Counted from the stretch's first letter, positions 54,921 through 61,474 are shown. The stretch is 64,000 nucleotides of DNA from Candidatus Omnitrophota bacterium (GCA_043798215.1 JAZDOX010000038.1:5659-69658), one strand, 5' to 3'. Notes: generated by a model from the sequence alone, not told the origin. Numbers and translations are program-made.

Positions 54921-55075
54921 GGGTAATTTTTTGTCTTTTTAAGGTAAAATCTGCTGTGGCGGGATTCGGCCCTGCCTGCCGGCAAGGTAGGGATTATTGT
55001 AATTTGAGAGCGTTGAAAAACCCTCAAAAAGCCGTTGTTCATATGGTAAAACTATGCTCTTGAATGTACTAAATT

Positions 55076-55156
55076 GGGACGCAGATAAACGCAGATTATC
55101 AGGATTTTTTAGACTTATCTGCGTAATCCCTATTTTCTGCGAAAATCTGCGTCCAG
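55076..55156. promoter_or_regulatory. Nested inverted-repeat element built from four ACGCAGAT(A/T)A / T(T/A)ATCTGCGT half-sites. Related ATCTGCG and GGGATT motifs recur at 54953..54975.
   Basis: GGGACGCAGAT (55076-86) pairs with ATCTGCGTCCA (55145-55). ACGCAGATTA (55090-99) pairs with TTATCTGCGT (55115-24). GACGCAGATAA (55079-89) matches TTATCTGCGTA (55115-25). The element lies in the divergent cinA / giant-gene intergenic region. Confidence 0.4.
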
Positions 55157-55254
55157 ACGGCCTTTTGCAATGCTCTCAATTTTTAAATTTATTTTTTTCA
55201 TATAACATATATTATAGGTTTGTCTATTTTTATGTCATTAAAATTGTCCTGTAG

Positions 55255-55274
55255 GGTTCAGGCCTGCCTGAACC
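55255..55274. promoter_or_regulatory. Perfect 8-bp stem / 4-nt loop hairpin (GGTTCAGG-CCTG-CCTGAACC). An imperfect GC-rich dyad follows at 55301..55319.
   Basis: Read directly from the sequence. Its function is unknown. A TATAAT hexamer abuts it at 55275..55280 but lacks a good -35. Confidence 0.3.
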
Positions 55275-55387
55275 TATAATTTAAACCAAATAGACAACGG
55301 GACGGGCAGGCCCGCCCCCTACACGTTTTCCATCAGCGCGCAGTTTTCAAGAATAAAGATTTTCGCCTGGAGCCGCACATTGAAAAT

Positions 55388-55416
55388 TTGACAGTAAGTC
55401 TCTCCTGAACTATAAT
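55388..55416 (+). promoter_or_regulatory. Consensus sigma70 promoter (TTGACA-17 nt-TATAAT) for cinA. The predicted TSS falls at or next to the ATG, so the mRNA would be leaderless.
   Basis: TTGACA at 55388..55393. A 17-nt spacer precedes TATAAT at 55411..55416. The ATG is at 55424, 7 nt after the -10. No Shine-Dalgarno lies between them. Confidence 0.55.
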
Positions 55417-55423
55417 GTTTTAA

Positions 55424-56746
55424 ATGGAAGCTGAAATAATCTCTATAGGAACCGAGATTCTTCTTGGGCAAATATTAAACACAAATCAACAATATCTCTC
55501 TTCGCGGCTTGCCGCGCTTGGAATTGACGTTTACCGCCATTCAACCGTCGGAGATAACCCTGAAAGGCTTATTTCCGCAATCCGGCAGGGCATTGAGCGT
55601 TCGGATATCGTAATTACTACCGGCGGATTGGGGCCTACGGTTGACGATATAACGCTTAAAGCTATTGCTTCCGCCTTCTCCAAAAAATTGATCTTTAATA
55701 AAGATCTCGCCGCGCAAATAAAAGCGCGCTTCGGAAGACAATGCGTTAATATGCCCAAAGAAAATCTGTGTCAGGCTTACGCGCCGGAAGACGCCGCGAT
55801 ATTAAAAAATAACGAGGGAACGGCGCCCGGTTTTATCATCGAGAAAAACGGCAAGATATTCATCGCCCTGCCCGGACCGCCGCGAGAACTCAAGCCGATG
55901 TTTGATAAATATGTCTTGGCATACCTTAAGAAAAAAACACGATCAGGCTGGATAATAAAAACCCGCGCCCTGAACATAACCGGTTTGCCCGAATCGGCCG
56001 TAGATAATAAAGTAGGAGACCTTCTGCGCGGCGCGCCGCCGGTTACAGTCGGAATATTCGCTTCCCCGTCTCTTGTCGAATTAAAGATAACCGCCAAAGC
56101 AAAAACCGAAAAACAGGCCAACGCGCTGATAGATAAGATGGATAAAAAAATTGCCGCGCGTTTAGGAGATTACATATTTGGGCGCGACAACGAGACTCTT
56201 GAAGGCGCCGTCGGGCAATTGTTAAAACGCTCTGGAAAAACACTCGCCGTAGCCGAATCCTTGACCGGCGGCCTAATCTCAAGCAGAATCACGGATGTGG
56301 CGGGAAGCTCGAAATATTTTATGATGGGCGGCGTAGCTTATTCAAATGAGACGAAGATCTCAAAACTTAAAATTCCCACGGGATTAATCAGGAAATACGG
56401 CGCCGTAAGCCGTGAGGCCGCGATTAAAATGGCGAAAAATGTGAGAGAGATCGTAGGAACCGATTACGGATTAAGCGTAACCGGAATCGCCGGACCTGAC
56501 GGCGCGACAAAAACCAAGCCGGTCGGGCTTGTCCATATCGCTGTCTCGACCCAAGAAGAAACAATCTGCCGGAAGTTCAATTTCATAGGCAGTCGAACGG
56601 TCATAAAATTCAACAGTTCTCAGGCCGCTCTCGATTTATTGAGAAAATATCTTACTGCTCAAAATAACAGATGTCATTCCCCGACTTGCAGACTGGGTCA
56701 CAATGTAGTTGCTCGATTTATCGAGCACAACATATCGGCCCAATAA
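55424..56746 (+). CDS. cinA: CinA family competence/damage-inducible protein (MoCF-binding N-domain plus CinA/PncC-like C-domain). The last roughly 30 codons derive from a repeat element.
   Basis: Translated MEAEIISIGTEILLGQILNTNQQYLSSRLAALGIDVYRHSTVGDNPERLISAIRQGIERSDIVITTGGLGPTVDDITLKAIA ... LAVAESLTGGLISSRITDVAGSSKYFMMGGVAYSNETK ... GLSVTGIAGPDGATKTKPVGLVHIAVS. The native-looking end ...ALDLLRKYL is followed by a tail TAQNNRCHSPTCRLGHNVVARFIEHNISAQ encoded by the 110-bp repeat. Confidence 0.85.
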   Translation: MEAEIISIGTEILLGQILNTNQQYLSSRLAALGIDVYRHSTVGDNPERLISAIRQGIERSDIVITTGGLGPTVDDITLKAIASAFSKKLIFNKDLAAQIKARFGRQCVNMPKENLCQAYAPEDAAILKNNEGTAPGFIIEKNGKIFIALPGPPRELKPMFDKYVLAYLKKKTRSGWIIKTRALNITGLPESAVDNKVGDLLRGAPPVTVGIFASPSLVELKITAKAKTEKQANALIDKMDKKIAARLGDYIFGRDNETLEGAVGQLLKRSGKTLAVAESLTGGLISSRITDVAGSSKYFMMGGVAYSNETKISKLKIPTGLIRKYGAVSREAAIKMAKNVREIVGTDYGLSVTGIAGPDGATKTKPVGLVHIAVSTQEETICRKFNFIGSRTVIKFNSSQAALDLLRKYLTAQNNRCHSPTCRLGHNVVARFIEHNISAQ

Positions 56747-56790
56747 ATTGGGCAGCTACAATATGTTGATCTATTTAGTCGAGAAAAAGG
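56681..56790. repeat. Copy 1 of a roughly 110-bp structured repeat element (MITE- or ncRNA-like). It overlaps the 3' end of cinA.
   Basis: About 85% identical to 59078..59187. Shared features are GTCATT(C/G)CCCGACTTG(C/G)AGACTG...CACAATGTAGTTGCTCGATTTATCGAGC (a GCTCGAtttATCGAGC hairpin) ... a G-C-C-C-(A/G)-A-T hairpin ... GCA(G/A)CTACAATAT. Confidence 0.6.
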
Positions 56791-56871
56791 GTTACGACCC
56801 AGTCTGCGAGCCGGACAATGACGATATAAGATTAAATCTCAAATACATAGAAGAAAGTGTTTTTACAAAAA

Positions 56872-57450
56872 ATGGAAGAATTGATCCGATCCTTTATTGC
56901 AATTGAATTAAGCTGGGAAACGCGCGATGAATTGTCGCGCCTTCAAGCCGCCCTCAAAAAGTTAAACGCCGACATAAAATGGGTTGAGCCGGATTCCATT
57001 CATCTTACCCTTAAATTTCTAGGCGAAGTTGATTCCTGTAAAATCAAAGAGGCGGAAGAAATCCTAAATGAAGCGGCAAGCGCTTTGCCGGGGCCGTTTA
57101 ATTTAAGATTGAGCGGCATAGGCGTTTTCCCAAGATCAAACTATCCTAAGGTAATATGGGCCGGCCTCGCCGAAGGAACAACCGAGACAACCCAATTAGC
57201 CCAAACGCTTGATAAAAAACTGCGAGATCTTGGATTTTCTTTGGAGACAAGGGAATTTCTTCCTCACATAACACTTGGCAGAGTAAGATCTTTACGCAAT
57301 AAGGACGATTTGATTAAAATGATAGACTCTACAAAATTTGAACCGGCCTCGATAACAAAAGTAGACCGCCTCACGCTCTTCAAAAGCCGGCTGACTGCGC
57401 AAGGCGCCGTTCATGCCCCCATCTTTACCGCTAAAATAAAAACCAGTTGA
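56872..57450 (+). CDS. thpR: RNA 2',3'-cyclic phosphodiesterase / 2'-5' RNA ligase (2H phosphoesterase, LigT/ThpR family)
   Basis: Two H-x-(T/S)-x motifs: SIHLTLKFLG and LPHITLGRV. The track ORF begins at a GTG at 56857. The ATG at 56872 (MEELIRSFIAIEL...) is the likelier start. The 3' end overlaps convergently with pgpA by about 40 nt. Confidence 0.8.
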   Translation: MEELIRSFIAIELSWETRDELSRLQAALKKLNADIKWVEPDSIHLTLKFLGEVDSCKIKEAEEILNEAASALPGPFNLRLSGIGVFPRSNYPKVIWAGLAEGTTETTQLAQTLDKKLRDLGFSLETREFLPHITLGRVRSLRNKDDLIKMIDSTKFEPASITKVDRLTLFKSRLTAQGAVHAPIFTAKIKTS

Positions 57451-57869
57451 GTGGTAAAATTCGCGTAAAGACCCGCGGCAATATCATCCAGGATAACGCC
57501 CCAGGGACTGGCGATCTTCTCTAATCTCTTAATGGGAAAAGGTTTGGTTATATCGAATAATCTAAATGCCGCGAAAGCCGTTAAGATAAAGACGGTTTTT
57601 TGCGGAATAAATAACAGCGCCGTCATCATTCCCGCCGCCTCGTCAATAACTATCCGCGCGGAGTCAGCTTTTCCAAATATCTTCTCCGCTTCGCTTACCA
57701 CAAAAAATTCGATCAGGATCAAACCTGCCAGACAGCTGAAATATAGCGCCGGCGGATCTTTAACAATAAAGTAAAAAATAAGCCCGCCCATAGAGCCGAT
57801 CGTGCCCGGCATAAGCGGCGCATATCCCAAATAAAAAAATGTGCTCAATATCCTTATAACCGTTTTCAC
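57411..57869 (-). CDS. pgpA: Phosphatidylglycerophosphatase A
   Basis: Translated ...VIRILSTFFYLGYAPLMPGTIGSMGGLIFYF...IVIDEAAGMMTALLF...FRLFDITKPFPIKRLEKIASPWGVILDDIAAGLYA. The likely start is the GTG at 57869..57867, which overlaps the pgsA TGA stop (GTGA). The longer ATG-initiated ORF reaching 57968 would overlap pgsA by about 100 nt. Confidence 0.75.
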   Translation of the reverse strand: MKTVIRILSTFFYLGYAPLMPGTIGSMGGLIFYFIVKDPPALYFSCLAGLILIEFFVVSEAEKIFGKADSARIVIDEAAGMMTALLFIPQKTVFILTAFAAFRLFDITKPFPIKRLEKIASPWGVILDDIAAGLYANFTTQLVFILAVKMGA

Positions 57870-58438
57870 GCAAATATCTTTCTGTTGCGCCAAAGAAACG
57901 AAACGCCTGAAATAAGCGTCAGAATAACGGCGATAAGGATAGAGATAAATATAAGATTCAAGACCCATCTTTCGGTCCCGTCATTCCAAAAGCTAAGATA
58001 TTTTGCGGCGTCCCTGAGCATCAAAAAAATAAGAACTATAAATATAGCTATCATCTGCGAGACCGTCTTATGCTTTCCCGCTTCCTCGGCCTCGATGACC
58101 CTGCCTCTCCCAAGCGCGAATATCCTTAAACCGGTTACCGCCGCTTCCCTCGTGATAATTATCACGACTGTCCATGCCGGAATAAGCCTTAACTCGACGA
58201 ACGCCAAAAAAGCGGCCAAAATAAGAATCTTGTCGGCAACCGGATCCATAAACTTCCCGAAATCGGTAATCTGGTTTCTTGTCCGAGCAAGATAGCCGTC
58301 AAGATAATCCGTCGCGCAAGCGGCGGAAAAAGTCAGAAAAGCCAGGAATTTCGCTCCTGTCCACCGCGCGAAAAGAAAATACATAAATACAAACGTTAAA
58401 ATAATTCTCGATATCGTAAGTTTATTTGATAAATTCAT
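57866..58438 (-). CDS. pgsA: CDP-diacylglycerol--glycerol-3-phosphate 3-phosphatidyltransferase
   Basis: Translated MNLSNKLTISRIILTFVF...ATDYLDGYLARTRNQITDFGKFMDPVADKILILAAF. The CDP-alcohol phosphatidyltransferase motif D-x2-DG-x2-AR-x8-G-x3-D-x3-D is present. Confidence 0.85.
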   Translation of the reverse strand: MNLSNKLTISRIILTFVFMYFLFARWTGAKFLAFLTFSAACATDYLDGYLARTRNQITDFGKFMDPVADKILILAAFLAFVELRLIPAWTVVIIITREAAVTGLRIFALGRGRVIEAEEAGKHKTVSQMIAIFIVLIFLMLRDAAKYLSFWNDGTERWVLNLIFISILIAVILTLISGVSFLWRNRKIFA

Positions 58439-58508
58439 CTTGGTATGAACCTGTTGCGAAATATCATTTTTTGCAATTTCCCGCCTTTATTATCCTAAAC
58501 ACAACAAT

Positions 58509-58606
58509 GTCATTCTGTGGCTTGACCACAGAATCCAGACATAAAAATAACTTTTAGCGTGACTGGATTCCCGCTAACAGATTGCGGGAATGACGTCTTG
58601 CAACTT
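58509..58606. repeat. REP-like palindromic units: A1 at 58509..58540 and A2 at 58561..58606. The consensus has CTGGATT and AATGAC flanks around a variable stem-loop.
   Basis: A1 is GTCATTCTGTGG-CTTGAC-CACAGAATCCAGAC. A2 is GACTGGATTCCCGC-TAACAGATT-GCGGGAATGACGTCTTGCAACTT. A2 is the reverse complement of 59208..59251. Confidence 0.5.
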
Positions 58607-58655
58607 AAAACAATTGAACTCATACAACTACTCGTGGTTCCGCGATACATTATTT

Positions 58656-59033
58656 TTAGTCTACAAGAAAATTGCTAAGAACGATGGATTTCAACCTTTC
58701 GAAATCAACGGGCTTTGTAACGTAGTCGCAACTTCCCGCGTCGGCGCATCTTCCGGATTCTTCGACATCCCAAATCGCGCTTACAATAACAACGGGAATA
58801 TTGGAATCAATCTCTTTAATCCGCTTGAGAGTCTCAAAGCCGCTCATCCCGGGCATCAATATATCCAGGATCACAAGCCCGGGTTTTTCAATCATAATTC
58901 TATGCAGGGCCTCTTCTCCCGACTGCGCCACTACTAATCTCCAGTTCTCGGCGCTTAATTTAATCGCTAATAACTCCAACTGTTGAACATCGTCGTCAAC
59001 TATTAAAACAGACCTTTTAGATTTTTCGTCCAT
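58656..59033 (-). CDS. Standalone response regulator receiver (REC, CheY-like) protein
   Basis: Translated MDEKSKRSVLIVDDDVQQLELLAIKLSAENWRLVVAQSGEEALHRIMIEKPGLVILDILMPGMSGFETLKRIKE...IPVVIVSA. It has the phospho-acceptor Asp context and lacks an output domain. A strong AAGGAGG Shine-Dalgarno sits 6 nt upstream. Confidence 0.85.
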   Translation of the reverse strand: MDEKSKRSVLIVDDDVQQLELLAIKLSAENWRLVVAQSGEEALHRIMIEKPGLVILDILMPGMSGFETLKRIKEIDSNIPVVIVSAIWDVEESGRCADAGSCDYVTKPVDFERLKSIVLSNFLVD

Positions 59034-59077
59034 TACCGCCCTCCTTGGTATTATCGTAACTCTTCGCCCATAAAATT

Positions 59078-59187
59078 GTCATTGCCCGACTTGGAGACTG
59101 TGCCACAATGTAGTTGCTCGATTTATCGAGCCTGATATGTTAGCCCGATGAATCGGGCAACTACAATATCTTGATGAATTTAGCTGG
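59078..59187. repeat. Copy 2 of the roughly 110-bp structured repeat element
   Basis: See copy 1. The internal hairpin GCCCAAtaaaTTGGGC (copy 1) becomes GCCCGAtgaaTCGGGC (copy 2). This is a compensatory A-T to G-C change that preserves pairing. Confidence 0.6.
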
Positions 59188-59207
59188 TGCAAGCGGTTTC
59201 ATAAGCC

Positions 59208-59305
59208 TCTTTGCTTCAAGTTGCAAGACGTCATTCCCCGATTTATTCGGGGAATCCAGTCATGCTATAAAATGTGATTCCGTGTCTGGATTACCCGCAC
59301 AGGGC
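59208..59305. repeat. REP-like palindromic units: B1 at 59208..59251 (inverted copy of A2) and B2 at 59274..59305
   Basis: B1 is AAGTTGCAAGACGTCATTCCCCGA-TTTAT-TCGGGGAATCCAGTC. B2 is GTCTGGATTACCCGC-ACAGG-GCGGGTAATGAC. The flanks are conserved and the stems covary. Confidence 0.5.
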
Positions 59306-59374
59306 GGGTAATGACTTATGAAACCGCTGGAGAATAACATTTAAAACTACTCGATCGTAACGCTCATTTATTAA

Positions 59375-61474
59375 TCAAACCTTCTTTAACCTTCTGATTT
59401 CCTGCAACAAATTTTCGGCAGAAAGACCTCCTTTCTGCTCGATGTGTTCAACGTTGCCGTTAAGCTTCTCTTTATCTTTAAGGGTTATGCTCTTTGCCGT
59501 AAGCACGATTATCGGAATATCCTTAAGCAAAGGATTACTTTTCATCTCCTCAATCACCTTAAAACCGCTCATCCTCGGCATCATTAAATCAAGAATCATT
59601 AAATCGGGCCTGGACTTAATCGCTAACTCTACGCCTTCTTTGCCGTTAAATGCCTTGATGGTCTTGAATCCCGCCGATCTAAGAGTTACCTCCGTAAGTT
59701 CCACCGCGTAAGGATCATCGTCCACGACAAGAATATTTATCGGCTTTCCATTTCTCGCCCCATCCATCATCCCAAACCTTCCCAAAATCTGAAAAAGTTT
59801 ACTCTTGTCCACGGGCTTAACCAGATAATCAATGGCTCCAAATTTCGAGGCCTCGCCGCTGTCTTCCATGACAGAAACTACTATAACGGGAATATCCTTA
59901 GTCTCGGGCAAATCCTTCAGCTCTTGAAGAACCTGCCAACCGTTCTTCTTGGGCAAATTAATATCCAGCGCAACTATATCCGGCTTTAGTTCCCTGGCCT
60001 TGTTAACCGCTTCCTCGCCGTCAAAAGCCGATAGAACATTATATCCTTCGGATCGAAGCGCTTCTGAAAGAAGCTCATTCTCCTGTGGATTATCTTCGAC
60101 TACTAATATGCTGGGAGTTTTATCTGCCAAAGCCGAAACAGCGCTCTTTTTAGCCGCTTTTTTTATCTCCACTATTGAGATTCCAACTTTCTCGCCAAAA
60201 GCCTTAACGCATCTGTCCAGCGAATAAACAACAGGAAACGTAAATATAAATTTGCTGCCCTTGCCTTCTTCGCTTTCCAACCAAATCTTTCCTCCGTGTA
60301 TCTCGATCAAGGTCTTTACCAGCGATAACCCCAGTCCGGTGCCGGAATATTGCCGCGAATACCCTTCATCAGCCTGCTGAAAAGGCTCAAATATGCGTTC
60401 CCAATCTTCTTTTTTGATACCGATTCCGCTATCAATTACCGAAATCTGAAATTCCTCTTTATCCTTTAAAAAAAGGGTCTCGATTTTAACGCTTCCTTCC
60501 TCAGGAGTAAACTTAATGGCATTGCTTAAAAGATTATACATTACCTGCTTGAACATCTTCTTATCGGCTGTCATCATTGGCGAATCCGCCAAATCTGGAA
60601 CCGTCAAGGATATCTTCTTCTTTAAAGCTAAAACCTTGACAACATCATTAACTTCCTTAATAACCTCGTCCGGGAAAAACTGTTCGGGACTAACCTGAAT
60701 CTTTCCGGCCTCGATACTCGCTAAATCAAGAAGGTCATTTATCAATTGCAAAAGGTGCCTTCCGGAAGTAAGGATATTATTCAAGTATTTTCCCTGAGTC
60801 GCGTTTAAGCCTCCGGATATGCCGTCCAATAAAACCTCGGAAAAACCTATTACGGAATTTAGCGGCGTTCTTAGTTCGTGGCTGACATTGGTTAAGAATT
60901 TAGATTTAGCCTCGCTTGCCCTGACTAACTCCTTATTAAGAATGACTAACTGCCGCGTCTTTGCCTCTACCCTTACCTCCAATTCCTTATTCCATACCTC
61001 AAGTTCCATTTTCGCTTTTTCGAGTTCTTGGTTTCTGGTCTCCAGCTCCTTTAATATCCTGCGATTTTCGTTCTTTAACCTGTATTCTTCCAATAAATTC
61101 TTAACGGTTAATCTCAAATCTTCGTTTTCCCAGGGCTTCTCGATATATTTGCTTAATCCCGCGTTGTTTATGGCATATATGGCCGAATCCAAGCCGGCGT
61201 ATCCTGTCAGCAAAATCTTTACGGTTTCTGGATGTTTCTTATGCACCATCTCCAGAAATTCCGCGCCCTTCATTCCCGGCATTACATGATCGGCAATCAC
61301 CATTTCCAAGTTCATTTGACCCTTTTCGAGTTCGTCTATAATCTGAAGGGCGTCTTCGGCGCTCTCAGCCAATCTTATATCATGGGTCTGACCCGCCAGA
61401 TCTTCCAAATTAAACCTCAACGAAACCAATACTGTCTGCTCATCATCAACGCATAATATTATTCCTTTAGACAC
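59375..61474 (-). CDS. Hybrid sensor histidine kinase / response regulator (N-terminal REC, coiled coil, HisKA, HATPase_c, two C-terminal REC domains)
   Basis: Translated MSKGIILCVDDEQ... (REC) ...FLTNVSHELRTPLNSVIGF (H-box) ... IDSGIGI...GTGLGLSLV (N/G boxes) ... ILVVEDNPQENELL... and ILVVDDDPYAVEL... (two further REC domains). Its start overlaps the upstream kinase stop by 8 nt. Confidence 0.9.
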   Translation of the reverse strand: MSKGIILCVDDEQTVLVSLRFNLEDLAGQTHDIRLAESAEDALQIIDELEKGQMNLEMVIADHVMPGMKGAEFLEMVHKKHPETVKILLTGYAGLDSAIYAINNAGLSKYIEKPWENEDLRLTVKNLLEEYRLKNENRRILKELETRNQELEKAKMELEVWNKELEVRVEAKTRQLVILNKELVRASEAKSKFLTNVSHELRTPLNSVIGFSEVLLDGISGGLNATQGKYLNNILTSGRHLLQLINDLLDLASIEAGKIQVSPEQFFPDEVIKEVNDVVKVLALKKKISLTVPDLADSPMMTADKKMFKQVMYNLLSNAIKFTPEEGSVKIETLFLKDKEEFQISVIDSGIGIKKEDWERIFEPFQQADEGYSRQYSGTGLGLSLVKTLIEIHGGKIWLESEEGKGSKFIFTFPVVYSLDRCVKAFGEKVGISIVEIKKAAKKSAVSALADKTPSILVVEDNPQENELLSEALRSEGYNVLSAFDGEEAVNKARELKPDIVALDINLPKKNGWQVLQELKDLPETKDIPVIVVSVMEDSGEASKFGAIDYLVKPVDKSKLFQILGRFGMMDGARNGKPINILVVDDDPYAVELTEVTLRSAGFKTIKAFNGKEGVELAIKSRPDLMILDLMMPRMSGFKVIEEMKSNPLLKDIPIIVLTAKSITLKDKEKLNGNVEHIEQKGGLSAENLLQEIRRLKKV

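Follow-up and report, generated by a model that had tools for sequence, protein, structure and literature searches.

A probable miniature transposable element with a REP hairpin pair as cargo, in two copies at and near the end of cinA in an Omnitrophota genome

Introduction

What kind of DNA overlaps the 3′ end of cinA, and why does a close copy of it stand 2.4 kb away, in a stretch of 64,000 nucleotides (the window) from a Candidatus Omnitrophota bacterium (GCA_043798215.1 JAZDOX010000038.1:5659-69658)? An earlier note on this DNA had described two copies of a structured element of about 110 bp and proposed a MITE (miniature inverted-repeat transposable element), a structured RNA or a terminator-like element. 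Both copies are probably a small non-coding mobile element of the first kind, a MITE with transposon-type inverted ends and, inside it, a pair of repetitive extragenic palindrome (REP) hairpins. Such an element is essentially ordinary bacterial junk DNA, yet interesting. REPs, REP doublets forming hairpins (REPINs), REP-associated tyrosine transposases (RAYTs), MITEs and insertion sequences (ISs) that target REPs are all established (PMC3733652, PMC3116915, PMC2817692, PMC1525189), and the element belongs to these known kinds. Two features go beyond the routine, namely the REP dimer as the cargo of a MITE, and a REP/RAYT class that is near-identical across many phyla.

Anatomy of the Two Copies

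Positions 56672–56778 and 59077–59183 form an ungapped direct repeat of 107 nt with 83% identity in a repeat search of the window. The two copies reported earlier are thus real, although copy 1 starts at 56672, not 56681, and the intervals given then were about 8 nt out of register. With copy 1 as the blastn query against the window, copy 2 is found at E 9.4e-28; the 22-mer GTAGTTGCTCGATTTATCGAGC occurs exactly twice, and in none of 100 shuffles; repeat, k-mer and blastn searches give no third copy in the window. Each copy contains two inverted 22-mers with an 11-nt spacer, the second hairpin, read on the minus strand, matching the first with 3 mismatches. The conserved hairpins of the earlier note are both present in the sequence.

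The unit proves to be composite, and its hairpins to be GTAG-tagged REPs of a RAYT-associated class, both points beyond the earlier note. Three layers are nested in it. The outermost consists of 16–17 nt (TGTCATTSCCCGACTTG), the left half of a palindromic repeat of the GTCATT type. The middle layer is a MITE of 116–118 bp with inverted ends SAGACTGKGYCACAAT, at 56689–56806 and about 59094–59209. The core is a head-to-head dimer of GTAG-tagged REP hairpins, GTAGTTGC-NNNN-TTYA-NNNN-GC. Their parts are placed as follows.

56672–56688, plus strand: left half of the presumed target repeat at copy 1, TGTCATTCCCCGACTTG, GTCATT-type (CGTC/TGTC-tagged); the same 17 nt stand at the cinA end of the relative L114
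56689–56806, plus strand: MITE copy 1, 118 bp, with boundaries from alignment with metagenomic MITEs of 115–132 bp
56689–56704 and 56790–56806, plus strand: inverted ends of copy 1, CAGACTGGGTC(ACAAT) and (GGTTAC)GACCCAGTCTG, 11/11 complementary
56705–56726, plus strand: GTAG-REP unit A of copy 1, GTAGTTGC-TCGA-TTTA-TCGA-GC, found in many phyla
56738–56759, minus strand: GTAG-REP unit B of copy 1, GTAGCTGC-CCAA-TTTA-TTGG-GC, with the cinA TAA (56744–56746) in its loop
56807–56823, minus strand: right half of the target repeat at copy 1, CGTCATTGTCCGGCTCG, pairing with 56672–56688 in a 44-nt inverted repeat
59077–59093, plus strand: left half of the target repeat at copy 2, TGTCATTGCCCGACTTG, the G variant of the GTCATT-type repeat
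59094–59209, plus strand: MITE copy 2, about 116 bp, with its left end GAGACTGTGCCACAAT (59094–59109) intact
59110–59131, plus strand: GTAG-REP unit A of copy 2, identical to unit A of copy 1
59143–59164, minus strand: GTAG-REP unit B of copy 2, GTAGTTGC-CCGA-TTCA-TCGG-GC, carrying a paired A>G / T>C change
59210–59229, no strand assigned: degenerate right flank of copy 2, TTTG CTTCAAGTTGCAAGAC, which RNAfold pairs with 59082–59095; the weakest assignment

The metagenomic MITEs from which the boundaries of copy 1 were taken share the ends, the GTAG dimer and a CTACAAYATRTTG block with it, and its right target half resembles the right flanks CAAGCCGGAGTATGAC (L129) and CACGCCGGAGAATGCC (L136). 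As a whole, copy 1 is a 150-nt nested palindrome (56673–56822) with 44-nt arms that are 73% complementary, and the 118-bp MITE has no open reading frame (ORF) of its own. The dimer of copy 2 is an inverted repeat with 23-nt arms, 87% complementary. The right third of that copy (59184–59209) has diverged, its right end being reduced to AGCCTC (59204–59209); ungapped identity with copy 1 ends at 59183, and a gapped alignment goes on weakly. The window copies have in common the 16 nt of the transposon-type end, the dimer and about 24 nt to the right of it, and the total is about 107 nt rather than 118 because both copies sit in a repeat of one kind, which adds 17 nt on the left, and the right third of copy 2 has decayed. 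Most likely the first 16–17 nt of the shared unit are target repeat and not element.

On its right flank copy 2 runs up to a REP dimer of the CGTC type at 59229–59317. This dimer is bracketed by a perfect 14-nt inverted repeat, AGCGGTTTCATAAG (59192–59205) and CTTATGAAACCGCT (59315–59328), with its left arm in the part of MITE copy 2 that has decayed on the right. That another MITE remnant, inverted, follows to the right of 59317 was considered and dropped, the local alignment score of 17 being not significant against a shuffle maximum of 22.

The REP Class of the Core and Its RAYT Genes

All four 22-nt REP units of the window have a 6-bp stem, a 4-nt loop and GTAG at the start, with every stem position paired, and in both copies RNAfold pairs unit A with unit B. 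The compensatory change that had been noticed between the copies, GCCCAAtaaaTTGGGC in copy 1 and GCCCGAtgaaTCGGGC in copy 2, is present and keeps the pairing; it exchanges two stem variants that rank among the most frequent in a large family, and is nothing peculiar to this element. A scan with the pattern TGTAGTTGCYCGANNNNTCGRGC, covering one genome per species, gave at least 113 stretches, and the matches listed come from Poribacteria, Zixibacteria, Ignavibacteria, Planctomycetes, Chloroflexi, Nitrospirae, Nitrospinota, Elusimicrobiota, Omnitrophota, Actinomycetota and Proteobacteria, according to the labels of the metagenome-assembled genomes (MAGs). Two of them, L013 and L032, are without the TTYA loop, lie in G+C-rich coding-looking sequence and look like chance matches. 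Many others are head-to-head dimers of the same form as in the window, and the TCGA + CCAA heterodimer of copy 1, with a spacer of 5–13 nt, is also present at loci of Zixibacteria, Ignavibacteria, Planctomycetes and Chloroflexi. Single Poribacteria chromosomes hold at least 10 of the stretches. GTAGTTGC REP dimers also occur in clusters resembling BIMEs (bacterial interspersed mosaic elements), at L085 (4690–4868, an Elusimicrobiota MAG), L007, L009 and L097, either in tandem with an 85-nt period or as adjacent units. A search of a literature library for the REP strings returned no paper in a relevant context, only unrelated primer-like matches.

That the change between the copies argues for selection on the hairpins, as the earlier note held, is borne out at the level of the family. 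For 58 distinct units, picked on tag and loop alone and independently of the scan pattern, complementarity at the four variable stem pairs holds in 193 of 232 cells, against 144 ± 4.7 after shuffling, a value reached in 0 of 2000 shuffles. Alternative pairs occur at every position (CCAA/TTGG, CCGA/TCGG, CTCA/TGAG, CTGA/TCAG, TCAA/TTGA, CCCA/TGGG, GCGA/TCGC). An alignment of the MITEs over the ends and both hairpins (A2) has 97.8% of cells paired against 82.5% when shuffled and 22–41% in slid controls, and 9 of its pairs are altered on both sides (0 of 500 shuffles); the end helix, columns 1–11 with 115–125, is 98% paired with two double changes. In the GTAG-REP class it is the hairpin that is conserved, not the stem sequence, and this accounts for the paired A>G / T>C change by which the copies differ.

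Units of the class (GTAGTTGC, GTAGTCGC or GTAGTTCG) lie within 200 nt of a RAYT (Y1/HUH transposase) gene in all five loci examined. The gene is flanked on both sides in four of these, which are independent loci: L115/L118 from a Planctomycetes MAG, L119 from a 5.8-Mb genome, L121 from an Actinobacteria MAG, and L120, from the same MAG as several of the REP matches; at one of the four a REP unit overlaps the stop of the gene. In the fifth, L024 from Anaerolineae, the upstream side alone is visible, as the gene reaches the contig end; here three tandem REP units stand 86 nt upstream of a 143-aa gene that matches Pfam Y1_Tnp at E 8.5e-9 and NCBIfam REP_Tyr_transpos at 75.7 bits, below the cut-off of 80, and that scores higher as a REP-associated tyrosine transposase than against IS200. 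The RAYT-like genes of these loci encode 134–149 aa; homologues of the L024 protein have 137–149 aa, and some of them are named RayT by the Joint Genome Institute (JGI). The loci have the REPtron layout described in PMC3733652. It is unusual for a REP family that almost the same REP stands beside RAYT-like genes in MAGs of different phyla.

Inverted Ends Shared with an IS1182-Family Insertion Sequence

The metagenome scan with the outer arm, GTCATTSCCCGACTTGNAGACTG, gave 39 loci, many of them at contig ends. After a common start their interiors are of three kinds: (a) a GTAG REP dimer with stems of another type and then CTACAACATATTG, the whole being collinear with the element of the window in alignment A2; (b) other palindromes; and (c) an ORF beginning MAYKCGSREQITLFPQSIDEYIGEEHPV. 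The ORF begins about 100 nt after the same left end in L127, L130, L138, L139, L141, L142 and L145, and it matches the NCBIfam IS1182 family transposase with 149 bits over profile positions 4–152 of 488, as well as Pfam DUF772. In this closest IS only the N-terminal 152 aa are on the contig, and the 149 bits are to be read against a full-length cut-off of 270. A complete relative of the family, of 1,695 bp, is found at 2882–4576 of L163, with perfect 16-bp ends GAGGCTGTGTCGCAAT and a transposase split into two ORFs (DUF772; DDE_Tnp_1/DDE_Tnp_1_6); it sits at the centre of a long palindrome, CCGAGGC / GCCTCGG, and the same locus was present in five samples. The consensus GAGACTGTGTCRCAAT of the 11–16 bp terminal inverted repeats of the miniature elements is that of the IS1182-family IS.

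Thirteen distinct full-length metagenomic MITEs have these ends; ten are of 115–132 bp, and the others are of 93 bp (L149), 191 bp (L123, L150) and 215 bp (L144). In several of them a GTAG REP dimer occupies the same position, and these are collinear with the window element. The same 119-bp MITE, with 1 nt different, occupies two different sites (L124 and L126), and both orientations are represented (L122 and L146 versus L124 and L126). The first of the three proposals in the earlier note, a MITE, is thus the one that has support, from the ends shared with an IS1182-family IS, the relatives of 115–215 bp and their two orientations. The window encodes neither an IS1182-family transposase nor a RAYT gene, and the copies in it are therefore non-autonomous. 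In an Elusimicrobiota MAG (L085, 3668–3810) a 143-bp MITE with the same inverted ends lies in another small palindrome.

The strongest competitor is a plain REPIN or BIME, in which the mobile unit would be the GTAG-REP dimer alone, spread by a RAYT through single-stranded hairpin intermediates, the arms being local palindromes or older REPs that received a copy of it. The core does have the classic form of a head-to-head GTAG REP dimer, the same REP class flanks RAYT genes, and REP dimers are described as RAYT-associated miniature mobile DNA (PMC3116915, PMC3733652); dimers of this class that stand alone, lacking the inverted ends, exist in many phyla. The likeness of the window copies nevertheless extends beyond the dimer, to the 16-nt end and the roughly 24 nt on its right, while in the metagenomic MITEs the ends, the spacing and the CTACAAYATRTTG block recur around a different REP dimer, and the same ends are found on an IS1182-family IS. 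The dimer on its own is unlikely to be the mobile unit.

Target Site and Element Boundary

Intact GTCATT-type units stand in the window at 58508, 58595 (minus strand), 59229 and 59317 (minus strand), the one at 58508 with a CTTGA loop. The target halves covary left and right, GCCCGA...TCGGGC as against CCCCGA...TCGGGG, and both the C and the G variant are found at metagenomic insertion sites, each with its matching right half (TCGGGG or TCGGGC). The same ends also lie in other palindromes, CCGAGGC / GCCTCGG in L163 and L167 and CCGCT / AGCGG in L085. Among 14 full-length copies (the 13 metagenomic ones and copy 1 of the window), 9 have TTG on both sides; copy 2 of the window is flanked by TTG and TTTG. 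Two intact CGTC/TGTC-tagged REP dimers occupy 58508–58597 and 59229–59317, in the form tag-ATT...stem...AAT-CCAG, and their stems covary (ATTCCCCGA, ATTCCCGC, ATTCTGTGG, ATTACCCGC); this REP class appears to be the one that the MITE copies have split.

Several findings weigh against a MITE inserted in such a repeat. Five of the 14 right flanks do not start with TTG, and in four of the five (L129, L136, L144 and copy 1 of the window) the right flank instead mirrors the left as its inverted complement; copy 1 has no TTG duplication, its flanks being CTTG and CGAG. GTCATT...CTTG may therefore, at copy 1 too, be not target but part of a longer, 32-bp inverted end. This 32-nt arm is the less likely option because most right flanks run into the REP-dimer sequence TCGGGGAATCCAG, and because intact repeats with the loop CTTGA exist and the same ends occur in other palindromes. 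Since the scan pattern required a GTCATT flank, the co-occurrence of flank and end in the 39 loci holds by construction. Only two copies are visible in this organism, within 64 kb, and a search at up to 4 mismatches gave no recognisable right end for copy 2. Beyond the window copies, no MITE with exactly the GTAGTTGC cargo was found in the searched metagenomes and genome loci: the pattern AGACTGNGNCACAATGTAGTTGC, joining the end to the window's REP cargo, had 0 matches in the metagenome collection, and a fuzzy search of the 113 listed genome loci gave no outer arms. Nor is the closest relative, L114, a clean empty site, as its right side differs and its contig ends 49 nt past the cinA stop.

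Gene Setting and the C-Terminal Tail of CinA

The copies lie among the following ORFs.

55424–56746, plus strand: cinA, 440 aa
56857–57450, plus strand: ligT/thpR-like gene
57411–57968, minus strand: pgpA
57866–58438, minus strand: pgsA-like gene
58656–59033, minus strand: response regulator gene
59375–61474, minus strand: hybrid kinase gene, with its stop at 59375

Copy 1 overlaps the 3′ end of cinA. The predicted CinA protein has the Pfam domains MoCF_biosynth, CinA_KH and CinA, the last matching profile positions 2–155 of 155 at residues 257–410, and residues 411–416 (TAQNNR) separate the domain end from the repeat. The ORF ends ...CHSPTCRLGHNVVARFIEHNISAQ*, as the earlier note gave it, with the TAA in the loop of the second hairpin. 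Tail and stop do lie in copy 1, which supplies 24 codons (residues 417–440) and the stop, not 30 codons. This tail is itself two-layered: residues 417–421 come from the older target repeat and 422–440 with the stop from the MITE, which follows CTTG in the window and continues the frame for 19 residues (CRLGHNVVARFIEHNISAQ) as far as the TAA that unit B has in its loop.

The tail is not conserved, as is expected of an insertion, when the C-termini of relatives are compared. Most of the best 120 CinA homologues have 410–412 aa and end ...LDLLRRSL. The closest (P0002, encoded at L114, 87% identity) ends ...TAQNNRCHSPT*, 19 residues earlier, inside an unoccupied repeat loop. Its DNA reads TGTCATTCCCCGACTTG and then A-TCCCCGCC...GGAATCCAG, with no MITE end, and its stop is the TGA of CTTGA. 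The junction of cinA and ligT is, in this phylum, a hot spot for repeats. In a 68% CinA relative with cinA–ligT–pgpA synteny (L168, 1833–1876) the last 15 or so cinA codons are a CGTC-tagged repeat, CGTCATTGCGAG...CGAAGCAATCTC, and the start of ligT overlaps the stop of cinA; several other CinA tails (RCHCE..AKQS.., LLSPxGRGLR) look repeat-encoded. An Omnitrophota CinA homologue of 603 aa (P0006) is fused in frame to a downstream LigT-like phosphoesterase, and this fusion may be another result of stop loss at the repeat-prone junction.

Copy 2 had been placed in the leader of the response regulator; it lies 43 nt upstream of the regulator's ATG (59033), on the opposite strand, in the 341-nt spacer between the kinase and regulator genes. 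Each copy stands between co-directional genes and both are probably transcribed, in opposite orientations relative to transcription, cinA being on the plus strand and the kinase–regulator pair on the minus strand.

All REP-like palindromic repeats of the window, five dimers of three classes, fall within 4.2 kb (55200–59400), and a tag-plus-hairpin scan of the other 60 kb gave no REP-like repeats. The third class is a head-to-head dimer upstream of cinA at 55250–55323, GTAGGGTTCAGGcctgCCTGAACC ... GGCAGGCCCGCCCCCTAC; on its 3′ side a sigma-70-like promoter match (55388–55416) reads TTGACA-17-TATAAT, 12/12. An unrelated inverted repeat upstream of the cinA region (55077–55154) has 30-nt arms, 77% complementary, and an 18-nt spacer. 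At both copies the target repeat's TGTCAT end, whose minus-strand reading is ATGACA, gives a weak outward promoter-like match of 9/12; these minus-strand matches are at 56649–56677 and 59053–59082, the one at copy 2 facing the response-regulator gene.

Readings without Transposition

The chance is small that the right description is a structured RNA acting in cis and under selection, for example a stabiliser of mRNA, an attenuator or an intercistronic processing site, duplicated because both operons need it. In its favour are the placement between co-directional genes, with probable transcription, the covarying stems, the effects of REPs on mRNA stability and termination that are reported in PMC3733652, and folds far more stable than those of shuffled sequences: on the plus strand the copy 1 palindrome has a minimum free energy of −67.8 kcal/mol (z = −9.0) and copy 2 a z of −4.7. 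Yet the copies are oppositely oriented relative to transcription, copy 1 is partly translated, related elements are found in unrelated settings and in either orientation, and covariation is equally expected of DNA hairpins recognised by a RAYT. Rfam gave 0 matches for the whole window at the gathering score, and for 55000–59600, at E up to 10, three sub-threshold matches, none of them relevant: two lie away from the copies, and the third, the eukaryotic long non-coding RNA model SMAD5-AS1_3 (58972–59091), overlaps the first 15 nt of copy 2 at the chance level of 19.3 bits against a gathering score of 60 (E 0.45). The dedicated structured RNA of the earlier note is not supported.

Local segmental duplication or gene conversion between nearby palindromic regions would need no transposition, and it would suit two copies only, 2.4 kb apart, inside the 4.2-kb stretch that holds all REP-like repeats of the window. 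Against it, the likeness ends exactly at the left edge of the GTCATT repeat, the outer flanks of the two copies are unrelated, the target halves are different known variants (C and G), and a family with the same ends exists in unrelated metagenomes. The unrelated flanks and the different target halves favour two insertions, and a local duplication is very unlikely.

An intrinsic terminator or terminator-like element downstream of cinA and the kinase gene, the last proposal of the earlier note, is hardly credible and was rejected: G+C-rich hairpins do lie near gene 3′ ends, but no T run follows either of them, a terminator scan of 55000–59600 gives no site in 56672–56823 or 59077–59229, and the cinA stop is inside the second hairpin.

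Proposed Mechanism and Significance

The MITE most likely inserted at the centre of a GTCATT-type palindromic repeat. Its ends, being those of an IS1182-family IS, point to mobilisation in trans by a DDE transposase of that family, which would be encoded elsewhere in the genome. These ends may have a preference for hairpin loops or centres; such placements, often with the 3-bp TTG on both sides, are seen in the metagenomic relatives. The REP cargo would be acted on by a RAYT. Copy 1 would have entered a repeat that already overlapped the cinA stop, displacing the TGA kept by the relative and lengthening CinA by 19 residues, and any influence on how stable the mRNA is, or on how ligT or the response-regulator gene is expressed, could be a by-product.

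A bolder reading of the same probable MITE makes it a non-autonomous transposon with two handles, its ends moved by an IS1182-family transposase and its REP-dimer cargo moved or processed by a RAYT, with the REP class and its RAYT forming a single cross-phylum system. As part of it, the GTAGTTGC-stem-TTYA-stem-GC class and its RAYT of 137–149 aa would be nearly unchanged across MAGs labelled as about ten phyla, namely Omnitrophota, Poribacteria, Zixibacteria, Ignavibacteria, Planctomycetes, Chloroflexi, Nitrospirae, Nitrospinota, Elusimicrobiota and Actinomycetota. Taken jointly, these two proposals are offered tentatively and are on balance doubtful. If they hold, one REP/RAYT system hitch-hikes on a second transposition system, and the cross-phylum class contradicts the usual view of lineage-specific, vertically inherited REPIN–RAYT pairs; once confirmed, such a class would be a test case for the horizontal spread of REPIN–RAYT pairs.

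More broadly, the case illustrates how small palindromic repeats, nested three deep at the end of a single gene, can give a housekeeping protein of an uncultivated phylum a new C-terminus. Repeats of this sort in candidate-phylum MAGs break assemblies and yield spurious protein tails, and the transposon end GAGACTGTGTCRCAAT and the REP class GTAGTTGC-N4-TTYA-N4-GC provide searchable signatures for the annotation of MAGs from Omnitrophota and other candidate phyla.

Comparison with Known Systems

GTAG-tagged REPs and their head-to-head dimers, as defined by Di Nocera et al. (2013, PMC3733652), have a formula that matches the core found in the window; the REPIN formula of Bertels and Rainey (2011, PMC3116915) likewise matches it, and GTAG REP/RAYT systems were described by Nunvar in 2010 (PMC2817692). 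An unpaired GTAG (GTRG) tetranucleotide at one end of the stem-loop is a feature of the GTAG REP superfamily according to PMC3733652. As in these systems, the unit in the window is a 22-nt imperfect palindrome preceded by an unpaired GTAG, the units form head-to-head heterodimers with a short spacer, stems covary while tag and loop are fixed, the elements lie between co-directional genes, where one overlaps a gene end and supplies the stop, and the class flanks Y1/RAYT genes in 5/5 loci examined. Unlike GTAG REPs and REPINs, the dimer is here the cargo of a transposon-ended element and not free-standing, and whereas described REP families are mostly species- or genus-specific, this class varies little among MAGs that their labels assign to about ten phyla.

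The MITEs of bacteria that derive from DDE insertion sequences (review: PMC3184786) resemble the window element in several respects: it is non-coding, of about 118 bp, its ends have the same consensus as the ends of an IS1182-family IS, and its relatives include variants of size and cargo that share the ends, in both orientations and mostly with a short flanking duplication. It differs from them in that its interior is a REP dimer and not a deleted IS, and in its probable insertion into a hairpin loop instead of a simple sequence target; the flanking duplication is absent at copy 1, and copy 2 has TTG on one side and TTTG on the other.

ISs that target REPs include IS1397, ISKpn1, IS621, ISPpu9/10, ISPa11 and ISRm22 (Tobes and Pareja 2006, PMC1525189), and the families given there are IS3, IS110, IS4, IS256 and IS5, IS1182 not being among them. 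The element would have in common with these ISs a high preference for the interior of a palindromic repeat, the halves of which are left around the insert; its partner, however, is of the IS1182 family, and the insert in the window is a miniature derivative. The translated part of copy 1 is reminiscent of the Rickettsia palindromic elements (RPEs) and of the intragenic REPs listed in PMC3733652, since here too repeat DNA would be translated in a housekeeping protein with its conserved domain intact. Unlike the RPEs, which are internal in-frame inserts, it extends the C-terminus of CinA by stop loss, a tail that is predicted from the ORF alone.

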